Positions 2,189 to 31,913 of a DNA stretch of 64,000 bases are shown here, piece by piece (within the stretch, counting starts at the first letter, position 1; every line of letters starts with the position of its first letter). Source of the stretch: an uncultured delta proteobacterium (lineage in GTDB: Bacteria; Myxococcota; Myxococcia; Myxococcales; Anaeromyxobacteraceae); assembly GCA_963828255.1 (NCBI GenBank), contig CAWHDZ010000026.1:32001-96000 (forward strand). Reading direction: 5' to 3'. Made by a program: the position numbers and the translations under genes. Under the pieces are notes generated by a model. The model was not told the DNA's origin, searched no databases, and saw nothing but the letters and a program-made list of their open reading frames with translations.

Positions 2189-3142
2189 TCAGACGAAGAG
2201 GCTGGAGAGCGAGTCGGAGCTCTGGATCCGCCGGATCGCCTCGGCGAGGAGCCGGGCCGAGCTGACCTGCTGGATCTTGGGGCAGGCCTGGGCCTGGGGG
2301 GAGAGAGGGATGGAGTCGGTGACCACCACCGACTCGATGGGGCTCTTCGCGATGCGGTCCACCGCCGGCCCGGACAGGACCGCGTGGGTGGCGTAGGCGT
2401 AGACCTTGAGGGCGCCCTTCTCCTTGATGGCGGCGGCGGCCTGGGTGAGCGTCCCGGCCGTGTCGATCATGTCGTCGAGCAGGATGGCCACCTTGCCGGA
2501 GACGTCGCCGATGACGTTCATGATCTCGGCGACGTTGGCCTTGGTGCGCCGCTTGTCGACGATGCCCAGCGCGGCGCCCATGCGCTTCGAGTAGGCGCGG
2601 GCGCGCTCCACGCCGCCGGCGTCGGGCGAGACGATGATCAGGTTCTCGCTGTCGGTGAACTGCCGCTTCATGTGCTCGAGCATGATGGGCGCGGCGTAGA
2701 GGTGGTCGAAGGGGATGTTGAAGAACCCCTGGATCTGCCCGGCGTGCATGTCCATCGAGACCACGCGGGTGACGCCGGCCGCCTCGATGAGGTCGGCCAC
2801 GAGCTTGGCGGTGATGGGGACGCGCGGCGCCACCTTGCGGTCCTGCCGCGCGTATCCGTAGTAGGGGATGACCGCGCAGATGGAGCCGGCCGACGAGCGC
2901 TTGAGCGCGTCGGCCATGATGAGGAGCTCCATGAGATTGTGGTTGGCGTTGGGGCTCGTGGACTGGATGATGAAGGTGTCGGTGCCGCGGACGTTCTCGC
3001 CGATCTCGACCTGGATCTCGCCGTCGGAGAACGCGCCCACGCTGGCGGCGGAGAGCTCGCGTCCGAGGTTCTGCACGACCGCCTTGGCCAGCGCCGGGTT
3101 CGAGTTGCCGGCGAAGACCTTGTAGAAGTTCGGGTTGCCCAT
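2189..3142 (-). CDS. prs: Ribose-phosphate pyrophosphokinase
   Basis: [25 protein letters not shown] and DDMIDTAGT (PRPP-binding) motifs. Confidence 0.98.
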
Positions 3143-3172
3143 GAGGGGCGCTTTATACCGCGCCGGCGGCGA

Positions 3173-3469
3173 CTAGGCGATGCCGTCGGCGTCGGCCGGG
3201 TGGGTCGCCGGCCCGCGGGCCAGTTCCCGGTCGTACTCCGACAGGATGATCCGCTCCATCCGGTCCCGGGTCTCGGTGTTGAGCGGATGGGCGATGTCCT
3301 TGAAGGTCCCGTCCTTGCGCCGCTTGGCGGGCATGGCCACGAAGAGTCCGGTGGTCCCCTGGATGACCTTCAGCCCCCGCACCACGAAGCAGCGGTCGAG
3401 GGTGATGGTGACGTAGGCCTTCAGCTTGTCCTCGTCGACCGGGAAGATGCGGACCTCGGTGATCTCCAT
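3173..3469 (-). CDS. spoVG: SpoVG family nucleic-acid-binding protein
   Basis: MEITEVRI...LKAYVTIT...FVV...GLFVAMP......FKDIAHP signature. Confidence 0.95.
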   Translation of the reverse strand: MEITEVRIFPVDEDKLKAYVTITLDRCFVVRGLKVIQGTTGLFVAMPAKRRKDGTFKDIAHPLNTETRDRMERIILSEYDRELARGPATHPADADGIA

Positions 3470-4332
3470 GGTACGGCTCCCCGCATCCGCTCAAGCGAGC
3501 GCGCAACGATGACGTCCACTTCCCGGCCTTCGAGCCGACGTCCGGCGAGACCTCTCGCCGCGGCCCGAGCCGATCGGAGATCGGCGTATGATCCGACGAC
3601 CGTCGGCCCGCTTCCTGACATCATAGGCGTACTCCCACCCACCTCTTCAAGCCACCCCAGGAGCGTTCCGAGCGACGGGTGGCGTGCGACGCAGGGCGCC
3701 ATGAGGTCGTTCTCGGGGCGGCGGGACGACGCCCTGCCGCGCCGCGGCATACCGGCCCCGCGGTCCAGGTCGAGCCAGCGGTAGGCGTCCCCGGCCCGGA
3801 TCGCCAGGGCGGGATCGCGCGGGTAGAGGAGCACGAGGTGGAGGGGCGCCACGCGGGCCGGCCGGAGCCGCTCCCCGCGCCCTCCGGCCCAGGCAGGGCC
3901 GGAACCCAGGAAGAAGGGGACGTCCGAGCCGATCCCGAGGGCCACCTCGGCGAGCAACCCCCGGTCGCGGACCCGAAAGGCCCGGGCCAGGCAGCGAAGC
4001 GTGGCCGCCGCGTCGGCGCTCCCGCCCCCCAGCCCGGCGACGACCGGGATGCGCTTCCCGATGCGGATGTCGATCCGGTCACGGCGCCCCAGCCGCTCCC
4101 GCAACGCCGAGGCGGCGCGGGCGGCGAGGTTTTCCTCCCCGTCCAGGTCGGGGCGCCCGGGGCAGCGGCAGGTGACCGGGCCAGGGCGGCCCCCCACCGT
4201 GACGCGGACCTCGTCGGCGAGGTCGAGCGGCACGAAGAGGGTCGAGATCTCGTGGAAGCCGTCGGGGCGGGGCGGACCCACCCGCAGGACCAGGTTCACC
4301 TTGGCGTGGGCCGGGCAGCGGAGGCGGATCAC
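3421..4332 (-). CDS. ispE: 4-diphosphocytidyl-2-C-methyl-D-erythritol kinase
   Basis: AHAKVNLVL, KRIPVVAGLGGGSADAA (GHMP), GSDVPFF, MSGSG; 3' end overlaps spoVG by 49 nt. Confidence 0.93.
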   Translation of the reverse strand: MIRLRCPAHAKVNLVLRVGPPRPDGFHEISTLFVPLDLADEVRVTVGGRPGPVTCRCPGRPDLDGEENLAARAASALRERLGRRDRIDIRIGKRIPVVAGLGGGSADAAATLRCLARAFRVRDRGLLAEVALGIGSDVPFFLGSGPAWAGGRGERLRPARVAPLHLVLLYPRDPALAIRAGDAYRWLDLDRGAGMPRRGRASSRRPENDLMAPCVARHPSLGTLLGWLEEVGGSTPMMSGSGPTVVGSYADLRSARAAARGLAGRRLEGREVDVIVARSLERMRGAVPWRSPRSASSRSTRTS

Positions 4333-4435
4333 TCCCCGTTCCTAGCACGAGGAGGGCGCTTGCCGCCCCCGCGCCCGGGGGACTAGGCTGCCCGCCCATG
4401 CAAGGCCCCTACGTCGGCGTGGTGGAGGAGTAGCC

Positions 4436-5155
4436 GTGGCCGAGGAGAAGCGTCCCGCGCCGCGGCGCAGCCCGGTCCTGCCCCTGCTCCTCGCGGTGGG
4501 GCTCGCCGTCGCGGTGGCGTGGCTGCTCGCCGAGCGGAACGCCCGCCAGTGGTGGATCGTCCCGGAGGACGGGAAGGTGGTGGTGAAGAAGGGGGTCCTC
4601 TTCGTCACCGGGAAGACCGCCTTCCAGTCGGCCGACCCCGAGACCGCCCGGACCTACGCGCCGATCCCGGCGCCGCAGGGGGGCGCCGCGGCCGCCGAGA
4701 CCGCCTACGAGGACCGGGCCGAGCTCGACCAGGCGCTCTTCGAGCTCCTGGCCGGCTGGGCCAAGTCAGACATCCAGTCGCAGCAGATGGAGCGCATGGA
4801 GCGGGCGCGCGGCTACCTGGGGCGGGCCTCCCGCCTGGCAGGGCTCTCGCCCGCGCAGCGGGAGCAGTTGCGCGTCCTGCAGGCCGAGACCGCCTTCCAG
4901 GAGGCGGTCGAGCACCTGACGCAGGGAGCGAACGCGCTGCGGCGCGCCCTCGAGGGGCTCAAGCTCGCGGCCGAGGCCCGCGGTCCGGTGGCGGCCGAGG
5001 CGGCGGCGCTGGAGAAGGCGCTCGAGCCGGTGGCCGCCTCGACCGGGCAGCTCATGCTCGAGGCCAGCCGCTTCGCGGCCGAGCGCTACCTCCCGTCGCC
5101 CCGGGCCCCGGGCGTCCCCGGCGTGCCTGCGCCCACCGGCCCCGCGCCGCGCTGA
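4436..5155 (+). CDS. Hypothetical membrane-anchored helical protein
   Basis: GGAGGAG SD, one N-terminal TM segment, typical GC3-rich codon usage; no family recognised. Confidence 0.75.
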   Translation: MAEEKRPAPRRSPVLPLLLAVGLAVAVAWLLAERNARQWWIVPEDGKVVVKKGVLFVTGKTAFQSADPETARTYAPIPAPQGGAAAAETAYEDRAELDQALFELLAGWAKSDIQSQQMERMERARGYLGRASRLAGLSPAQREQLRVLQAETAFQEAVEHLTQGANALRRALEGLKLAAEARGPVAAEAAALEKALEPVAASTGQLMLEASRFAAERYLPSPRAPGVPGVPAPTGPAPR

Positions 5156-5170
5156 GGTATCGTGCCGACC

Positions 5171-7324
5171 ATGAAGCCGGTCCGGCTGGCCATCCTCTGG
5201 CACATGCACCAGCCGCTCTACCGGGAGCCGGCCACGGGCACCTACGTGCTCCCCTGGGTGCGGCTCCACGCCACCCGGGCCTACGCCGACATGGCCTGGA
5301 TCCTGGAGCGCCACCCCGGGGTCCGGGTGACGGTGAACTTCACGCCGGTCCTGCTCGACCAGCTCGAGGACTACGTGGCCGGCCGGGCCCGCGACGCCAT
5401 CCTGGAGATCTCGGCCCGCGACCCGGCCGACCTCTCCCCGGAGGAGCGCCGCCGGCTGCTCCACTCCTTCTTCATGGTGGACTGGGACCGCTCGGTGCGC
5501 CCGGTGCCGCGCTACCTCGAGCTGCTCGAGAAGCGCGGGCGCGACCTGGCCCGGGTGGACCTGGACGAGGTGGTGCCGGAATTCACTTTAGGTGAATATC
5601 GCGACCTCCAGGTCCACTTCAACCTGGCCTGGATGGGTTTCGGGGCGCTGGAGGACGACCCGGCGCTGCGCGAGCTCGCCCGGCGCGGCCGCGACTTCGA
5701 GGCCGCCGACGTGGAGCTGGTCCTGGAAGCCCAGCGCAGGGTGCTCGCCGGCGTCCTGCCGCGCTGGCGGGCGCTCCTCGAGCGTGGCCAGGTGGAGCTC
5801 TCCACCACGCCCCACCACCACCCCATCCTGCCGCTGGTCTGCGACAGCGACGCGGCCGCCCGGGCGCTCCCCGGAGTGGCCCTGCCGCCCCGCTTCGCCT
5901 GGCCGGACGACGCCCGGCGCCAGACCGCCGACGCGCTCGCGGGCCACGCCCGGCGCTTCGGCCGTCCCGCAGCCGGGATGTGGCCGGCGGAGGGGTCGGT
6001 CTCGCCCGAGGCCCTCGCGATCCTGGCCGGCGAGGGGGTGGCCTGGACCGCCTCCGACGAGGCGGTGCTGCTCCGGTCGCTTCCCCCGGGCAGCCCGCGG
6101 GCCCTCTCGCTCTACCGCCCGTGGCGCGCCGCCGCCGGCGACCGGGAGATCGCCATGCTCTTCCGGGACCGGGGGATCTCCGACCTGGTGGGGTTCAGCT
6201 ACGCCCGGCAGCCGGCCGACGTGGCCGCGGCCGATTTCACCAATCGTGTGGTGGAGGCCGGCGAGGCCTGGCGGCGCGACGGCGGCCGGGGGCCGGCCAC
6301 GGTGGGGGTCTTCCTCGACGGCGAGAACCCCTGGGAGCGCTACGTGCGTTCCGGCCATGACTTCCTCGAAGCGCTCTACCGCTCCCTCGGGACGGACCCC
6401 CGGGTGCAGACGGTGACCATGTCCGAGGCGGTGGCCGGTGCGGAGGGGCCGCCCATCGTCCGCATCCACTCGGGATCGTGGATCGAGGCCTCCTACCGCA
6501 TCTGGATCGGCCACCGGGAGGACCGGCTGGCCTGGACGGCGCTGGGGCGGGCCCGCGAGGCGGTGGAGAAGGCGAAGCTGGCGGGCGCGCCCGCCGACAA
6601 GGTCGAGCACGCCCTGCGCCACCTGATGGCCGCCGAGGGTTCCGACTGGTACTGGTGGTACGGGGAGGACTTCTCCACCGAGAACGCCGCCGAGTTCGAC
6701 GCCCTCTTCCGCGGCCACGTGCTGCGGGCCTGCGAGCTGCTCGACCTGGCGCCGCCGCAGGAGGTGCTGCAGCCCATCAAGCCCGCCGGGCGGGGCGCCC
6801 TGGAGGCCAAGGCGCTGCGCGAGCCGACGGCCCTGCTCCGTCCAATCATCGACGGGCGCGACCCGGACTTCTTCGAGTGGCATGGGGCCGGCCTGCACCG
6901 GCCCGGCCGCGGCCGCGGGTCGATGTTCGGCGGGGCCCCGACCTTCTCGGCCCTTTACTGGGGCTTCGACGAGGCGAACCTCTTCCTGCGGCTCGATCCC
7001 GACCCCGAGGCGCAGTCTCCAGACCGCGTCCGGGTGACCCTGCTCGGTCCGCTCGGCCCCTCACGCCTGGAGTTCCCGGTGGTGAAGGACGGCGTCCCGC
7101 GCCCCGTGCTGCGCAACGGCGACGAGGTCGGCCGGGCCGTCCTGCTCAAGGTCCTGGAGGTGGAGATCCCGTTCGCGCCGCTCGGCATCCTCCAGGGCGA
7201 CGAATTGGTGATGTCGGTCGAGGCGCTCTCGGGCGAGGTCGAGCTGGAGCGCATCCCCCGGTCCGGGTACCTGCCCCTCTCGGTGCCGGGCGCCGATTTC
7301 GAGCGGATCCACTGGCGCGTGTGA
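5171..7324 (+). CDS. Glycoside hydrolase family 57 (amylopullulanase/glucanotransferase-like)
   Basis: HMHQP, HPILP, WPAEGS (Glu nucleophile), FLDGEN (Asp acid/base) and AEGSDWYWW motifs. Confidence 0.93.
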   Translation: MKPVRLAILWHMHQPLYREPATGTYVLPWVRLHATRAYADMAWILERHPGVRVTVNFTPVLLDQLEDYVAGRARDAILEISARDPADLSPEERRRLLHSFFMVDWDRSVRPVPRYLELLEKRGRDLARVDLDEVVPEFTLGEYRDLQVHFNLAWMGFGALEDDPALRELARRGRDFEAADVELVLEAQRRVLAGVLPRWRALLERGQVELSTTPHHHPILPLVCDSDAAARALPGVALPPRFAWPDDARRQTADALAGHARRFGRPAAGMWPAEGSVSPEALAILAGEGVAWTASDEAVLLRSLPPGSPRALSLYRPWRAAAGDREIAMLFRDRGISDLVGFSYARQPADVAAADFTNRVVEAGEAWRRDGGRGPATVGVFLDGENPWERYVRSGHDFLEALYRSLGTDPRVQTVTMSEAVAGAEGPPIVRIHSGSWIEASYRIWIGHREDRLAWTALGRAREAVEKAKLAGAPADKVEHALRHLMAAEGSDWYWWYGEDFSTENAAEFDALFRGHVLRACELLDLAPPQEVLQPIKPAGRGALEAKALREPTALLRPIIDGRDPDFFEWHGAGLHRPGRGRGSMFGGAPTFSALYWGFDEANLFLRLDPDPEAQSPDRVRVTLLGPLGPSRLEFPVVKDGVPRPVLRNGDEVGRAVLLKVLEVEIPFAPLGILQGDELVMSVEALSGEVELERIPRSGYLPLSVPGADFERIHWRV

Positions 7325-27878: not shown

Positions 27879-29249
27879 ATGGCGGCCATCTCGAAGACGA
27901 TCTTCCGCGAGTACGACATCCGCGGGCTGGTGGACCAGGACCTCACCGAGGACGCGGTGCTCCTCGTGGGGCGCGCGCTCGGCGCCGAGGTGCGCGAGCA
28001 GGGCGGCCGCCGGGTGGTCATGGGGCGCGACTGCCGGGAGAGCGGTCCACGCTTCGCGAGGGCGATGGCGGCGGGGCTGAACGCGGCCGGCGTGGACGTG
28101 ACCGATCTGGGGGTGGTGCCCACGCCGCTCACCTACTTCGCCGCGGCCACCCTTCCGGTGGACGGCCTGGTGATGATCACCGGCTCCCACAACCCGCCCG
28201 AGTACAACGGCCTCAAGGTCGGGGTGGGGAAGAACACGCTCCACGGCGACGGCATCCAGGCGCTCCTCCGGCGCATCACCGCGGACCGCTTCACGAGCGG
28301 GGAGGGCAAGGTCGAGGCCCACGACATCGTCACGCCCTACCTGGCCTACGTCCGCGGCAATCTGAAGCTCGGCCCCCGCAAGCTCAAGGTGGTGGTGGAC
28401 GCCGGGAACGGCACCGGCGGCGTCATCGCCGTGCCGCTCTTCCGCTCGCTGGGCGTCGAGGTGGTGCCGCTCTTCGAGGAGATGGACGGGCGCTTCCCGA
28501 ACCACCACCCGGACCCGACGGTGGAGAAGAACCTCGCGTTCCTCAAGGCCAAGGTGCTCGAGACCGGCGCCGACCTGGGGGTGGCCTACGACGGCGACGC
28601 CGACCGGGTGGGGGCCGTGGACGAGAAGGGAACGGTGCTGTGGGGCGACCAGCTCATGATCCTCTTCTCGCGGGCGGTGCTGGCCGAGAACCCCGGCGCG
28701 GCCATCGTCGGCGAGGTGAAGTGCTCGAAGACCCTCTACGACGACATCGCCGCCCGCGGCGGCCGGGGCATCATGTGGAAGGCCGGCCACAGCCTCATCA
28801 AGGCCAAGATGAAGGAGGAGGGGGCGCTGCTCGCCGGGGAGATGAGCGGGCACATCTTCTTCGCCCACCGCTGGTTCGGCTTCGACGACGGCATCTACTC
28901 GTCGGGCCGGCTGCTCGAGCTGGTCTCGCGCACCGACCGGCCGGTCTCGACGCTCCTCGCCGACGTGCCGAGGACCTTCTCGACGCCGGAGATCCGCTAC
29001 GACTGCCCGGAGGAGATCAAGTTCGAGCTGGTCCGCCTGGCGCAGGAGTGGTTCGCCTCCCGGCACGAGGCGGTGACCATCGACGGGGTCCGCGTGATCT
29101 TTTCCGACGGGTGGGGCCTGGTCCGCGCCTCCAACACCCAGCCGCTCCTCGTCCTCCGCTTCGAGGCCCTGACGGCCGGGAGGCTGGCCGAGATCCAGGC
29201 GCTGGTGACCTCGAAGGTGGATGAGCTGAAACGGCGTCTCGGCGCGTAG
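27879..29249 (+). CDS. Phosphomannomutase/phosphoglucomutase (AlgC-type)
   Basis: IFREYDIRG, TGSHNP, DGDADR, GEMSGH and RASNT. Confidence 0.95.
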   Translation: MAAISKTIFREYDIRGLVDQDLTEDAVLLVGRALGAEVREQGGRRVVMGRDCRESGPRFARAMAAGLNAAGVDVTDLGVVPTPLTYFAAATLPVDGLVMITGSHNPPEYNGLKVGVGKNTLHGDGIQALLRRITADRFTSGEGKVEAHDIVTPYLAYVRGNLKLGPRKLKVVVDAGNGTGGVIAVPLFRSLGVEVVPLFEEMDGRFPNHHPDPTVEKNLAFLKAKVLETGADLGVAYDGDADRVGAVDEKGTVLWGDQLMILFSRAVLAENPGAAIVGEVKCSKTLYDDIAARGGRGIMWKAGHSLIKAKMKEEGALLAGEMSGHIFFAHRWFGFDDGIYSSGRLLELVSRTDRPVSTLLADVPRTFSTPEIRYDCPEEIKFELVRLAQEWFASRHEAVTIDGVRVIFSDGWGLVRASNTQPLLVLRFEALTAGRLAEIQALVTSKVDELKRRLGA

Positions 29250-29451
29250 CGCCGGGACGCAATGCCCGACGAAAGCCAAGCCCAGCAGCTTTTCCATGAC
29301 ATTGACGGCGAGTGAACACGCACTCAAGGTCATCGTTCACGCTTCGAGATTGACCCTCGGACCGATCGTCACGCCGCCTTCCCCGCTCGGCCCGGCACGA
29401 TCCAACCGGGTACATCGCCACCGATCTCCGGCGGTCACCGCAAGAAAATGT

Positions 29452-29467
29452 CGGCCGTATCCTTGCA
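29452..29467 (+). promoter_or_regulatory. Candidate sigma54 (-24/-12) promoter upstream of the Lys/Ala micropeptide
   Basis: cGGCCGTATCCTTGCA: GG-N10-GC spacing with TTGCA, in a 300-nt lower-GC intergenic region. Confidence 0.45.
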
Positions 29468-29547
29468 AGGTCGATCTGCGTTCGCTAATCTGCACTCGTC
29501 TTCGTAGTGCGTCGTTGGTAGTTGACCAACTGTCAGGGAGGTAACAC

Positions 29548-29622
29548 ATGGCTGCCAAGAAGAAGGCTGTGAAGAAGGCTCCGGCGAAGAAGAAGGCTGT
29601 GAAGAAGGCCAAGAAGAAGTAA
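29548..29622 (+). CDS. 24-aa Lys/Ala-rich micropeptide MAAKKKAVKKAPAKKKAVKKAKKK (histone H1-tail-like)
   Basis: GGGAGGT SD just upstream of the ATG; TAA stop; 13 Lys, all AAG; below the ORF-track size cutoff. Confidence 0.8.
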   Translation: MAAKKKAVKKAPAKKKAVKKAKKK

Positions 29623-29634
29623 CGATGCCTTCGT

Positions 29635-29684
29635 GGCGCGAGGAGACTCGCGCCGGGTCTTGCGGCCGCCTCCGGGCGGCCGCA
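29635..29684 (+). other. Tandem perfect hairpins between the micropeptide and rqcH
   Basis: GGCGCGAG-GAGA-CTCGCGCC (GNRA loop) and TGCGGCCGCC-TCCG-GGCGGCCGCA (cUNCGg loop); no clean U-tract. Confidence 0.7.
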
Positions 29685-29700
29685 GCCGTTTCGGGCTCCC

Positions 29701-31164
29701 GTGTCCCTGCGCTCCGGCGAGATCGCGCTCCTCATCGAGGAGCTCCGCCCCCTGGTGGGGTCGCGCGTCGACGCGGTGCGGGTTCACTCCGAGCGGCTCG
29801 TCACCCTGGAACTGCGCGGTCCGGCCGGCGACGCCACCCTGCTCCTCTCCGCCGAGCCGGACCTCACCCGCCTCCACGCCGCCACCTGGCGCCCCCCGTC
29901 CCATCCCGAGCCGCTGGCCTTCCAGGTCGCGCTGCGCCGCGAGATCAGTGGCGCCCGGCTCGCGTCCATCGAGGCTCCCGGCGGGGATCGGCTGGTGGCA
30001 TTGCGTTTCGAGCGCCCGGCCGGCCCCGTGTCGCTCCTGGCCGAGCTGACCGGGCGGAACGGAAACCTCCTCCTCGTGGACGGAGCCGGCGTCGTCCGGG
30101 CCATGGCAGGCCGGAACCTCTCCCAGCGCCGGGCGCTCCTGCCGGGCGCCCCGTACCTCCCGCCGGAGGCCCGGGAGGGGGACGGCGAGGCGCCCCGCTT
30201 CGCGCCGGTGGAGGGCGCGCCGTTTCCCGTCTCCGCCGCGGTCGAGGCCTTCTACCGGAGGCTCGAGGAGGAGCGCGCCCTCTCGGCCGCACGCCGCCGC
30301 CTGCGCGAGCCGCTGCGGGCGGGGGTGGCCCGGTCGCGCCGGGCGCTCGAGAAGCTCGCCGACGAGGCGGCGCGCGTACCCGCGGCCGAGGCCGACCGGC
30401 GCGCCGCCGACCTCCTCAAGCAGAACCTCCGCGCGGTCCCGCGCGGAGCCCGGGAGGTCGCCGTCACCGAGTGGACCGAGGACGGCCCCATCCACGTGAC
30501 GCTGGCCATCGACCCGGCGCTCACGCCGCGCGCCAACATGGAGCGCTTCTACCGGCGCTACCGGCGCATCGCCGAGAGCGCCGCCCGGGTCGAGGCCCGC
30601 GTCGGCGAGGTGAGGGCGAGGCTCGCGGCCACCGAGGCGCTGCTCGCCGAGCTCGAATCCGCCCCGCCCGAGGCGCTGCCGCGGCTCGAGCGGGAGGCAC
30701 GCAAGGTCGGCGCCGCACCGCGCGTGCAGCGCCCGCCCCGCCGGCGCGACGAGAAGCCGGCCGCTCCCTACCGGACCTTCCGGTCGGCAGCCGGCCTCCT
30801 CGTCCTGGTGGGGCGCGGCGCCGCCGAGAACGATCAGCTGACCGTGCGGGTGGCCAAGGGAAACGACGTCTGGCTTCACGCCCGCGGCCGCACCGGCGCC
30901 CACGTCGTCCTGCGGCTCCCCAAGGGGCGAGCCCCCGATCAGGAGAGCCTGCTCGACGCGGCCCACCTGGCCGCCCACTTCAGCGACGCCCGGGGGGAGG
31001 CCGCTCCCGAGGTGGTCTACACGCGCGTGAAGCACGTCCGGAAGGTGAAGGGGGCCGCCCCCGGGGCCGTGACCTACAGCCAGGAGAAGGGGATGGCGCT
31101 GCGGGTGGAGCCGTCGCGCCTCACGCGGCTCCTCCTGGGGGAGTCCGACGGGGAGCCTTCGTGA
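29701..31164 (+). CDS. rqcH: RqcH/NFACT (FbpA-like) ribosome quality-control factor
   Basis: NFACT-N DRLV.L.F...L.AELTGRNGN.LLVD, coiled coil, N...FY.RYRR, and NFACT-R VGR...END.L......D.WLHA....GAHVV. Confidence 0.9.
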   Translation: MSLRSGEIALLIEELRPLVGSRVDAVRVHSERLVTLELRGPAGDATLLLSAEPDLTRLHAATWRPPSHPEPLAFQVALRREISGARLASIEAPGGDRLVALRFERPAGPVSLLAELTGRNGNLLLVDGAGVVRAMAGRNLSQRRALLPGAPYLPPEAREGDGEAPRFAPVEGAPFPVSAAVEAFYRRLEEERALSAARRRLREPLRAGVARSRRALEKLADEAARVPAAEADRRAADLLKQNLRAVPRGAREVAVTEWTEDGPIHVTLAIDPALTPRANMERFYRRYRRIAESAARVEARVGEVRARLAATEALLAELESAPPEALPRLEREARKVGAAPRVQRPPRRRDEKPAAPYRTFRSAAGLLVLVGRGAAENDQLTVRVAKGNDVWLHARGRTGAHVVLRLPKGRAPDQESLLDAAHLAAHFSDARGEAAPEVVYTRVKHVRKVKGAAPGAVTYSQEKGMALRVEPSRLTRLLLGESDGEPS

Positions 31165-31913
31165 GCGCGGCCAGGGGTCAGCTCGATCTCTCCTTCGACG
31201 CCCGCGAGGCGGGGAGGACGGACCGCGTCGCCGCCGCCGAGCGGCTGGCCGACGAGGTGGCCGCCCGCATCGGCGAGCCTGTCCGGCTCGTGGTGCACGA
31301 CAACCGGCACACCATGGTCTCCTTCCGCCGCGAGCGGACGGCCATCCAGCTCCGCGTCCACCACCTCTTCCTGGGCTGCCCTCCCGAGGTGACCGAGGCG
31401 CTGGCCGGGTTCGTCCGGCCGGAGCGGCGCGCCAGCCGCCGGGAAGCCTCGCGCGTCATCGACGGGTGGGTGCGGATCCACCGGGAGCGGATCTCCCCGC
31501 CGCGCACCGGGCGGCTCCATGCGCGCGGGCGGGTCCACGATCTGCAGGCCATCCTCGATCGCCTCAACGCCGATCACTTCGGCGGGTCGGTCGAGGCCAG
31601 GATCGGCTGGGGGCGGAGCGGGGCCCTGCCCGGGCGCACCTCCATCCGCACCGGGGTGTACCTGCACGCCGCCCGCGCCATCCGCATCCACCCCGCGCTC
31701 GACCGGGAGGAGGTGCCGGTCTTCTACGTGGAGTTCGTGGTCTTCCACGAGATGCTTCACCAGGTGGTCCCGCCGGCCGAGCGGGGGGGGCGCCGGAGCA
31801 TCCACGGCCGGGAGTTCCGGCGGCGGGAGCGGTCCTTTCCCGGGCAGGCCCGTGCGGCCGCCTGGGAGAAGGAGAACGTGCACCTCCTGCTGGCAAAACC
31901 GGGACGACGGTAG
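31161..31913 (+). CDS. SprT-like HExxH zinc metalloprotease domain protein
   Basis: LN..HF.G.....I.W...G.Y......IRIHPALD......FVVFHEMLH...H...F; GTGA overlap with rqcH. Confidence 0.8.
   Translation: MSAARGQLDLSFDAREAGRTDRVAAAERLADEVAARIGEPVRLVVHDNRHTMVSFRRERTAIQLRVHHLFLGCPPEVTEALAGFVRPERRASRREASRVIDGWVRIHRERISPPRTGRLHARGRVHDLQAILDRLNADHFGGSVEARIGWGRSGALPGRTSIRTGVYLHAARAIRIHPALDREEVPVFYVEFVVFHEMLHQVVPPAERGGRRSIHGREFRRRERSFPGQARAAAWEKENVHLLLAKPGRR

Follow-up and report, generated by a model that had tools for sequence, protein, structure and literature searches.

A 24-codon lysine/alanine gene upstream of rqcH in Myxococcia and its probable H1-tail-like product

The window analysed here is a stretch of 64,000 nucleotides (nt) from an uncultured delta proteobacterium of the family Anaeromyxobacteraceae (assembly GCA_963828255.1, contig CAWHDZ010000026.1, positions 32,001 to 96,000, forward strand). 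Downstream of a phosphomannomutase gene, which ends at 29249, it carries a 24-codon open reading frame (ORF) rich in lysine and alanine codons, followed by two hairpins, rqcH and a gene for a SprT-like protease. Compared with its relatives, the small ORF reads as a real, self-contained gene, a very short form of a Lys/Ala protein kept by most of the myxobacteria examined. Its product is probably an abundant, disordered, H1-tail-like polycation, whose charge would let it bind nucleoid DNA and compact it. The features of the locus are as follows.

29548–29622, + strand: Lys/Ala polycation gene, 24 amino acids (aa), from the ORF reading and from orthologues that precede rqcH in 69 of the 78 genomes compared
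29463–29468, + strand: predicted sigma70-type promoter, −35 element TTGCAA, from comparison among relatives
29473–29476, + strand: GATC in the promoter spacer, found in the −35/−10 spacer of 35 of the 36 genomes of the window's family
29486–29491, + strand: predicted −10 element TAATCT, 17 nt past the −35 element, from comparison among relatives
29536–29542, + strand: Shine-Dalgarno (SD) sequence GGGAGGT, from the sequence; GGAGG stands at the same place in nearly all orthologues listed
29557–29579, + strand: 23-nt direct repeat, copy 1
29587–29609, + strand: 23-nt direct repeat, copy 2, identical to copy 1
29635–29654, + strand: hairpin 1, GAGA loop, seen only in the window's genus and in genome G018
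29660–29692, + strand: hairpin 2 (TCCG loop) with the weak U-tract CCGTTTC, the predicted intrinsic terminator and mRNA 3′ end
29701–31164, + strand: rqcH (NFACT/Rqc2 homologue), 487 aa, GTG start (ATG in relatives), Asp96-Arg97 kept
31161–31913, + strand: SprT-like HExxH metalloprotease gene, HEMLH at 31746–31760, its start overlapping the rqcH stop

The ORF at 29548–29622 translates to MAAKKKAVKKAPAKKKAVKKAKKK and ends in TAA. Re-reading of the sequence confirmed the description in an earlier note on this DNA: the ORF and its stop, the GGGAGGT SD, 13 lysine codons, all AAG, and 7 alanine codons (4 GCT, 2 GCC, 1 GCG). Without its methionine the peptide has 23 residues, a mass of 2.48 kDa and a computed charge of about +13 and pI of 11.1. 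The exclusive use of AAG is ordinary here, as AAG makes up 98% of the Lys codons genome-wide. The GCT codons are indeed unusual, as had been noted, since GCT accounts for 3.2% of Ala codons in the long ORFs of the genome and for 1 of 172 in 12 ribosomal-protein and tuf genes (binomial P 3e-5 for 4 of 7, or 6e-4 with one repeated GCT left out). The excess is modest but family-wide (162 of 1148 Ala codons across the 69 orthologues). The two copies of the 23-nt repeat reported earlier proved identical; the exact repeat is absent from most orthologues and is evidently a recent duplication within a low-complexity ORF. An 82-aa ORF on the + strand and a 132-aa ORF on the − strand overlap the gene and were taken as shadow frames of GC-rich DNA. 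When the genome was scanned for methionine-started ORFs of 12–150 aa with at least 25% K and at least 50% K+A, 9 matches were obtained, and the 24-aa ORF was the sole near-pure Lys/Ala one below 30 aa with a GGAGG-type SD. Further small Lys/Ala-rich ORFs of this genome lie at C40:141185 (99 aa), C31:85144 (41 aa) and C19:64782 (36 aa).

The ORF is embedded in what appears to be a complete expression cassette. A strict consensus scan for promoters and terminators gave 0 sites, and the promoter emerged by comparison of relatives only. The −35/−10 pair of the window is shared by 12 genomes of its genus (in 2 another pair scored higher, and in 1 an 18-nt register was taken). The window has TTGCAA-17-TAATCT; much of its family carries TTGACG-18-TAACCT instead, and most Myxococcaceae have TTGACA-17-TACCAT. 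Both tetraloop hairpins that had been reported after the ORF were located; the stem-loop of hairpin 2 (29660–29685) has a folding energy of −24.4 kcal/mol, and its core, GCGGCCGCC-TCCG-GGCGGCCGC or a close variant, is found in 36 of 36 genomes of the window's family. It is followed by 4–6 T in most other genera of the family and by no more than CCGTTTC in the window's genus; in Myxococcaceae the small gene is followed by another hairpin, one that has a canonical U-tract. The GATC spacer motif, a conceivable target of a regulator or of methylation, occurs also in family f8, and in f3 a pair of GATC motifs precedes the −35 element.

Loci carrying rqcH were collected as the best matches of homology searches together with 40 hand-picked stretches, so that the counts below refer to a non-random sample of non-independent kin. 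Of 78 Myxococcia genomes, 69 have a Lys-rich ORF 5′ of rqcH and in the same orientation: 36/36 in f1 (the window's family), 22/26 in f6 (Myxococcaceae), 4/4 in f10, 3/5 in f3, 1/4 in f4 and 1/1 each in f2, f8 and f9, the gene order being kept in 8 families. The two misses in f3 are contig ends, one of which (G033) shows the cut tail of a Lys-rich ORF, and G037, which was dropped by the scoring script and stands outside the 69, has a 32-aa copy. The orthologues range from 18 to 221 aa (median 31; 18–42 aa in the window's family) and their length changes by whole codons. Lysine and arginine together make up 0.27–0.64 of the residues and alanine 0.13–0.44, and 52 of the 69 contain no Asp or Glu. 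The overall composition is K 38%, A 32%, T 12%, P 6% and R 4%, and Arg often stands in for Lys, and Thr or Gly for Ala. The conserved trait is positive charge, and neither codon nor length. Between the window and the 5 other versions of 24 codons there are 7 synonymous and 3 non-synonymous codon differences.

The positional orthologue in Myxococcus xanthus DK1622 is MXAN_6302 (MXAN_RS30530; ABF86753, Q1CYU6). It is 240 nt long and lies 97 nt upstream of the 1458-nt MXAN_6301 (rqcH), which fits the 79-aa ORF and spacer of genome G143, whose RqcH clusters with M. xanthus proteins; the tag assignment is confirmed by size, strand and spacing. An over-long, 131-aa form of the G143 ORF is identical to the DK1622 entry. 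Because the mapped 5′ end of the RNA lies downstream of the 131-aa start, the mRNA does not include that start, which makes the 79-aa frame the plausible one. MXAN_6302 is mislabelled 'excinuclease ABC subunit A' in a table of PMC6791715 and is elsewhere a 131-aa hypothetical protein. Among 19 small proteins looked up in a collection of 15 billion proteins only this mis-started form was present, and the ESM Atlas holds the 79-aa form under an automatic 'excinuclease' cluster name, with the HC2 family on 20% of one cluster. The earlier description of the gene as unannotated thus stands for the 24-residue peptide, which the collection lacks, but not for the M. xanthus orthologue, whose annotations give it a wrong name or a wrong start. 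No paper on MXAN_6302 or this gene came up in a literature search of main texts, with subscription journals and bioRxiv supplements outside it.

Three raw RNA sequencing runs from one study, chosen by species label, were mapped on the G143 locus. Peak sense depth over the small gene was 3191, 2594 and 4389, compared with 16–77 over rqcH and an antisense background of 10–71; in the same runs the two tuf copies together reached 2482–5210 and genes of the S10 operon 400–2500. The 5′ ends of the RNA lie 17–26 nt behind the −10 element and the 3′ ends 3–4 nt short of the terminator hairpin, which indicates a discrete transcript. Loose read ends over the small gene (L065:2227-2338) resemble G-to-A-converted local copies, seen in all three runs and probably a sequencing artefact. 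Published values agree: in the growth samples tabulated in supplement 11 of PMC6791715, MXAN_6302 has 6197 and 6653 reads per kilobase per million (RPKM), tuf 2365–3241, rpsJ 3236 and 3331, four 'integration host factor' genes 63–334 and rqcH 46 and 38. G143 likewise has four PF00216 genes. By these tabulated figures the mRNA is about 135–175 times that of rqcH, exceeds every gene of the HU/IHF family and stands at about the level of EF-Tu during growth. At 6 h of starvation, according to the same data set, tuf and rpsJ fall 4–5-fold while MXAN_6302 stays at 5202 and 5487 RPKM; by 72–96 h it has come down to 1107–1668, 4–6-fold below growth. The claim of a real gene is thus borne out by the synteny upstream of rqcH, the full cassette and the M. 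xanthus transcript.

Such a short, abundant and hairpin-capped RNA would also be expected if the transcript acted as an RNA with an incidental ORF, and a peptide could serve as a lysine store or charge buffer with no role in chromatin. The product is known here from sequence and RNA, and in the three genomes whose 24-codon copies are closest to the window's the ORF is nucleotide-identical. Against both stands the retention of SD, ATG, frame and stop while the nucleotide sequence and length diverge widely, and Rfam gave only 3 weak matches, none near the gathering score. Either explanation is improbable, and the small ORF is expected, from its SD and the conservation of its frame, to be translated.

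The earlier note had offered, as one of two readings, a leader peptide that links ribosome stalling to rqcH expression; stalling at Lys or Ala codons would let the polymerase pass hairpin 2 into rqcH. The layout is compatible with this, as the small gene lies on the rqcH strand at a distance of 61–236 nt in 65 of 69 genomes, and as in attenuators of the trpL/hisL type a short ORF of biased composition is followed by hairpins and then by the downstream gene. The window's genus has a weak U-tract, and an attenuator in its uninduced state would likewise yield a short, abundant, terminated RNA. Leaders of the trpL/hisL type have a fixed length, a sensing codon, a conserved antiterminator and a starvation response. 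The small gene, unlike these, has no fixed length (18–221 aa), no sensing codon, with Lys/Arg and Ala/Thr/Gly exchanged, no conserved antiterminator and no starvation response in the M. xanthus data described below, and it is separable from rqcH. In three f10 genomes it lies 577–609 nt from rqcH, and in the two that were mapped a 157–174-codon ORF stands between them. G028 has a syntenic copy of 27 aa, which shares promoter type, SD and the upstream exbB/exbD genes with G025 and G095 and is followed by a different gene; in this genome, which is 97% complete, no NFACT-R match and only a weak NFACT_N match (E 5e-4) was obtained, so that rqcH was not found. Seven rqcH loci, conversely, have no Lys-rich ORF. 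The f10 inserted gene (L138:9932-10453, L139:5726-6196; 157–174 aa) has no Pfam match.

The possibility of a competing fold was addressed in an equilibrium model in which a ribosome footprint was moved along the ORF and the pair probability of the hairpin core was followed at 69 loci. Wherever the ribosome was placed, the core remained at P 1.0 in the window and above 0.95 in 55 of the 69 loci, and no fold competing with the terminator was found. Among the 14 loci that were not stable, a wrong or partial hairpin had apparently been picked in 8; the other 6, out of 36 in the window's family, show some loss of the core (minimum P 0.19–0.91), which speaks for attenuation. An earlier run on an outer, mismatched extension of the stem (23 of 35 stable, window P 0.000) was replaced by this core-pair run. 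The M. xanthus hairpin terminates at least about 97–99% of transcripts, and no relief on starvation is seen. Over the starvation time course given in PMC6791715, rqcH stays at 30–74 RPKM with no rise at 6 h, and it tracks MXAN_6303, a low, upstream gene on the opposite strand (rho 0.83, 13 samples); these rqcH values lie near the floor of that data set, whose conditions are starvation and development. The ratio of rqcH to the small gene rises there from 0.6% to 4–7% late in development, because the small gene falls and the data floor rises. The literature search gave nothing relevant on leader control of rqcH among the titles listed. With the peptide conserved away from rqcH and no relief of termination seen on starvation, most of the support for leader control of rqcH is removed, the model is weakened to the point of being very unlikely, and the 24-aa gene is probably not a switch for rqcH.

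The other reading in the earlier note, a minimal H1-like peptide, fared better. Its composition, its conservation, the cassette, two long orthologues that score as HC2 and the very high mRNA level in M. xanthus all support it; DNA binding is predicted by analogy. The traits of the H1-tail-like class are present, namely low-complexity Lys/Ala(/Pro/Thr) repeats, few or no acidic or hydrophobic residues and variable length. Like Chlamydia Hc2/HctB (PF07382, NF038052) and the Burkholderiales H1-like protein (NF038053), the family consists throughout of short Lys/Ala-rich repeats and varies in length by repeat number. Hc2 is a late protein of the condensing stage. By the RPKM values above, the M. 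xanthus orthologue differs from it, its mRNA being highest in growth and falling 4–6-fold late in development. As described in PMC2848022, Hc2 binds DNA and has 165–237 aa, varying by lysine-rich pentamers, against 24 aa in the window form. Among 9 orthologues scanned with Pfam HC2 (PF07382), two exceed the cut-off of 40 bits, namely the 202-aa member with 46 and the 221-aa member with 52. The C-terminal KPAA regions of Pseudomonas AlgP and PhaF are likewise K/A/P repeats with predicted disorder and variable repeat number. In the accounts given in PMC9239181 and PMC12818456 these regions bind DNA, RNA or polyphosphate (polyP): C-terminal fragments of AlgP and KPAA peptides bind DNA in vitro, AlgP spaces polyP granules, and the KPAA tail of PhaF binds specific mRNAs through its lysines and activates their translation. 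There the tail is carried on a folded N-terminal domain, whereas in the window gene the tail is the entire protein. On sequence grounds the small gene family resembles H1-tail polycations and is not an Hc2 member by score, and its common ancestry with Hc2 would be indistinguishable from low-complexity similarity. H1-tail-like Lys/Ala polycations (Hc2, AlgP, PhaF) are already known; the minimal stand-alone form is new here.

In the mechanism proposed, the strong promoter would give a monocistronic, hairpin-ended mRNA for a polycation of about +13. By composition and by analogy with AlgP, PhaF and Hc2, this product is predicted to be disordered, to bind nucleic acids non-specifically and to neutralise and bridge their backbones as those tails do. 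DNA is favoured as the ligand because expression exceeds that of all HU/IHF-family genes and does not follow that of the ribosomal genes. The same stand-alone gene could instead act mainly on RNA, the ribosome or polyP, as an RNA chaperone or an organiser of polyP condensates, which is a less likely alternative. It draws on the reported activities of PhaF and AlgP and on the polyP granules that lie within the nucleoid of M. xanthus, as cited in PMC11894788, and such a role could account for the lasting neighbourhood of rqcH in 8 families. This alternative is disfavoured by the retention of the small gene in G028, where rqcH was not found, and, on the tabulated RPKM values, by the 6 h starvation samples, in which the mRNA does not follow ribosomal genes; the small peptide also lacks a folded partner domain such as those by which PhaF and AlgP are targeted. 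Low read-through (about 1%) from the strong promoter probably feeds rqcH and the SprT-like gene and would suffice to keep the gene order.

Several points weigh against an H1-tail-like, DNA-compacting product. The window peptide has no Pfam or NCBIfam match. None of 6 orthologues scanned passes NCBIfam Hc2 (NF038052), the best having 39 bits where 135 are required, all members stay below the NCBIfam cut-offs, and the HC2 scores of the long members can arise from composition alone. DNA need not be the ligand, given that KPAA repeats also bind RNA (PhaF) and localise to polyP granules (AlgP), and the long-kept linkage to rqcH has no explanation under the H1-tail reading itself. The expression data all come from Myxococcus and not from the window's organism. 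Finally, no Lys-rich ORF was seen in 7 genomes in 2.4–5 kb read upstream of rqcH, nor a copy elsewhere in these genomes by pattern or by a protein query run without a positive control. A 67-aa member used as protein query in 10 genomes gave no match and, having no positive control, is uninformative.

If DNA compaction is nonetheless taken as the role, it is conceivable, though doubtful, that Myxococcia possess a major unrecognised chromatin protein that consists of the H1-like tail alone, shrunk to 18–42 residues in Anaeromyxobacteraceae and too short and Lys-rich for gene callers and tryptic proteomics. By the tabulated RPKM values its M. xanthus mRNA is about eight-fold above the four HU/IHF-family mRNAs combined and is spared the early-starvation shut-down of ribosomal genes. 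The orthologues form a natural series of 18–221 residues for testing the length of polycation tail needed to organise a nucleoid or polyP, a cheap test given the genetic tractability of M. xanthus.

The identity of rqcH, as assigned earlier, is well supported. Its product matches Pfam NFACT_N and NFACT-R and aligns with Bacillus subtilis RqcH (PDB 7as8; E 6e-49) over NFACT-N and the coiled-coil/NFACT-R region with the DR motif kept, the B. subtilis protein having about 570 aa compared with 487 aa. RqcH functions in ribosome rescue as described in PMC8012679. The remark that rqcH lacks an evident SD holds for the window, but GGAG or GAGG is present 3′ of the terminator in 29 of 65 relatives. 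TAnnnT-like hexamers lie 6–13 nt 5′ of the rqcH ATG in some f3 and f4 genomes (L020, L021, L023, L026), hinting at a leaderless rqcH mRNA there. Four genomes of families f5 and f7 (G028, G030, G035, G040; 89–97% complete) gave no RqcH or NFACT-R match, a possible lineage loss of rqcH. The HExxH protease gene that had been placed 3′ of rqcH carries the HEMLH motif and follows rqcH in relatives too; its assignment as SprT-like is less secure, the product scoring 23.7 bits against the PF10263 cut-off of 25.6 (E 4.5e-5).

The window's genome has no histone-fold match. In family f14, which belongs to another class, histone-fold proteins of 68–69 aa (L149:203, L150:1511, L151:1514; genomes G232, G198, G174) start with MATKKK(A/T)AKK, resembling the start of the window peptide, and that of L151 matches PDB 9qt0 (E 3e-10) and 8fvx (E 7e-7). 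The name 'HnfA' for a Myxococcus histone-like protein was dropped as no paper was found for it.

A phylum-wide pattern search matched 39 of 201 genomes but not the window, and is therefore not a census. In G129 and G142 the pattern matches, as well as one of the two in G028, proved to be the beginnings of longer unrelated proteins, and 14 of 16 pattern matches on viral contigs were longer proteins that merely start with M-A-x-K-K-K. Two viral contigs (L187:601, L194) carry Lys-rich ORFs of 15 and 17 aa with an SD. In G166 (L148:1514, family f15) a stand-alone 19-aa Lys/Ala gene lies upstream of dnaX, with a TTGACA-17-TATACT promoter, an SD and a bidirectional terminator, and an NFACT-R gene is on another contig. 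Because an M-A-x-K-K-K start alone does not show homology, this gene is called similar, not orthologous.

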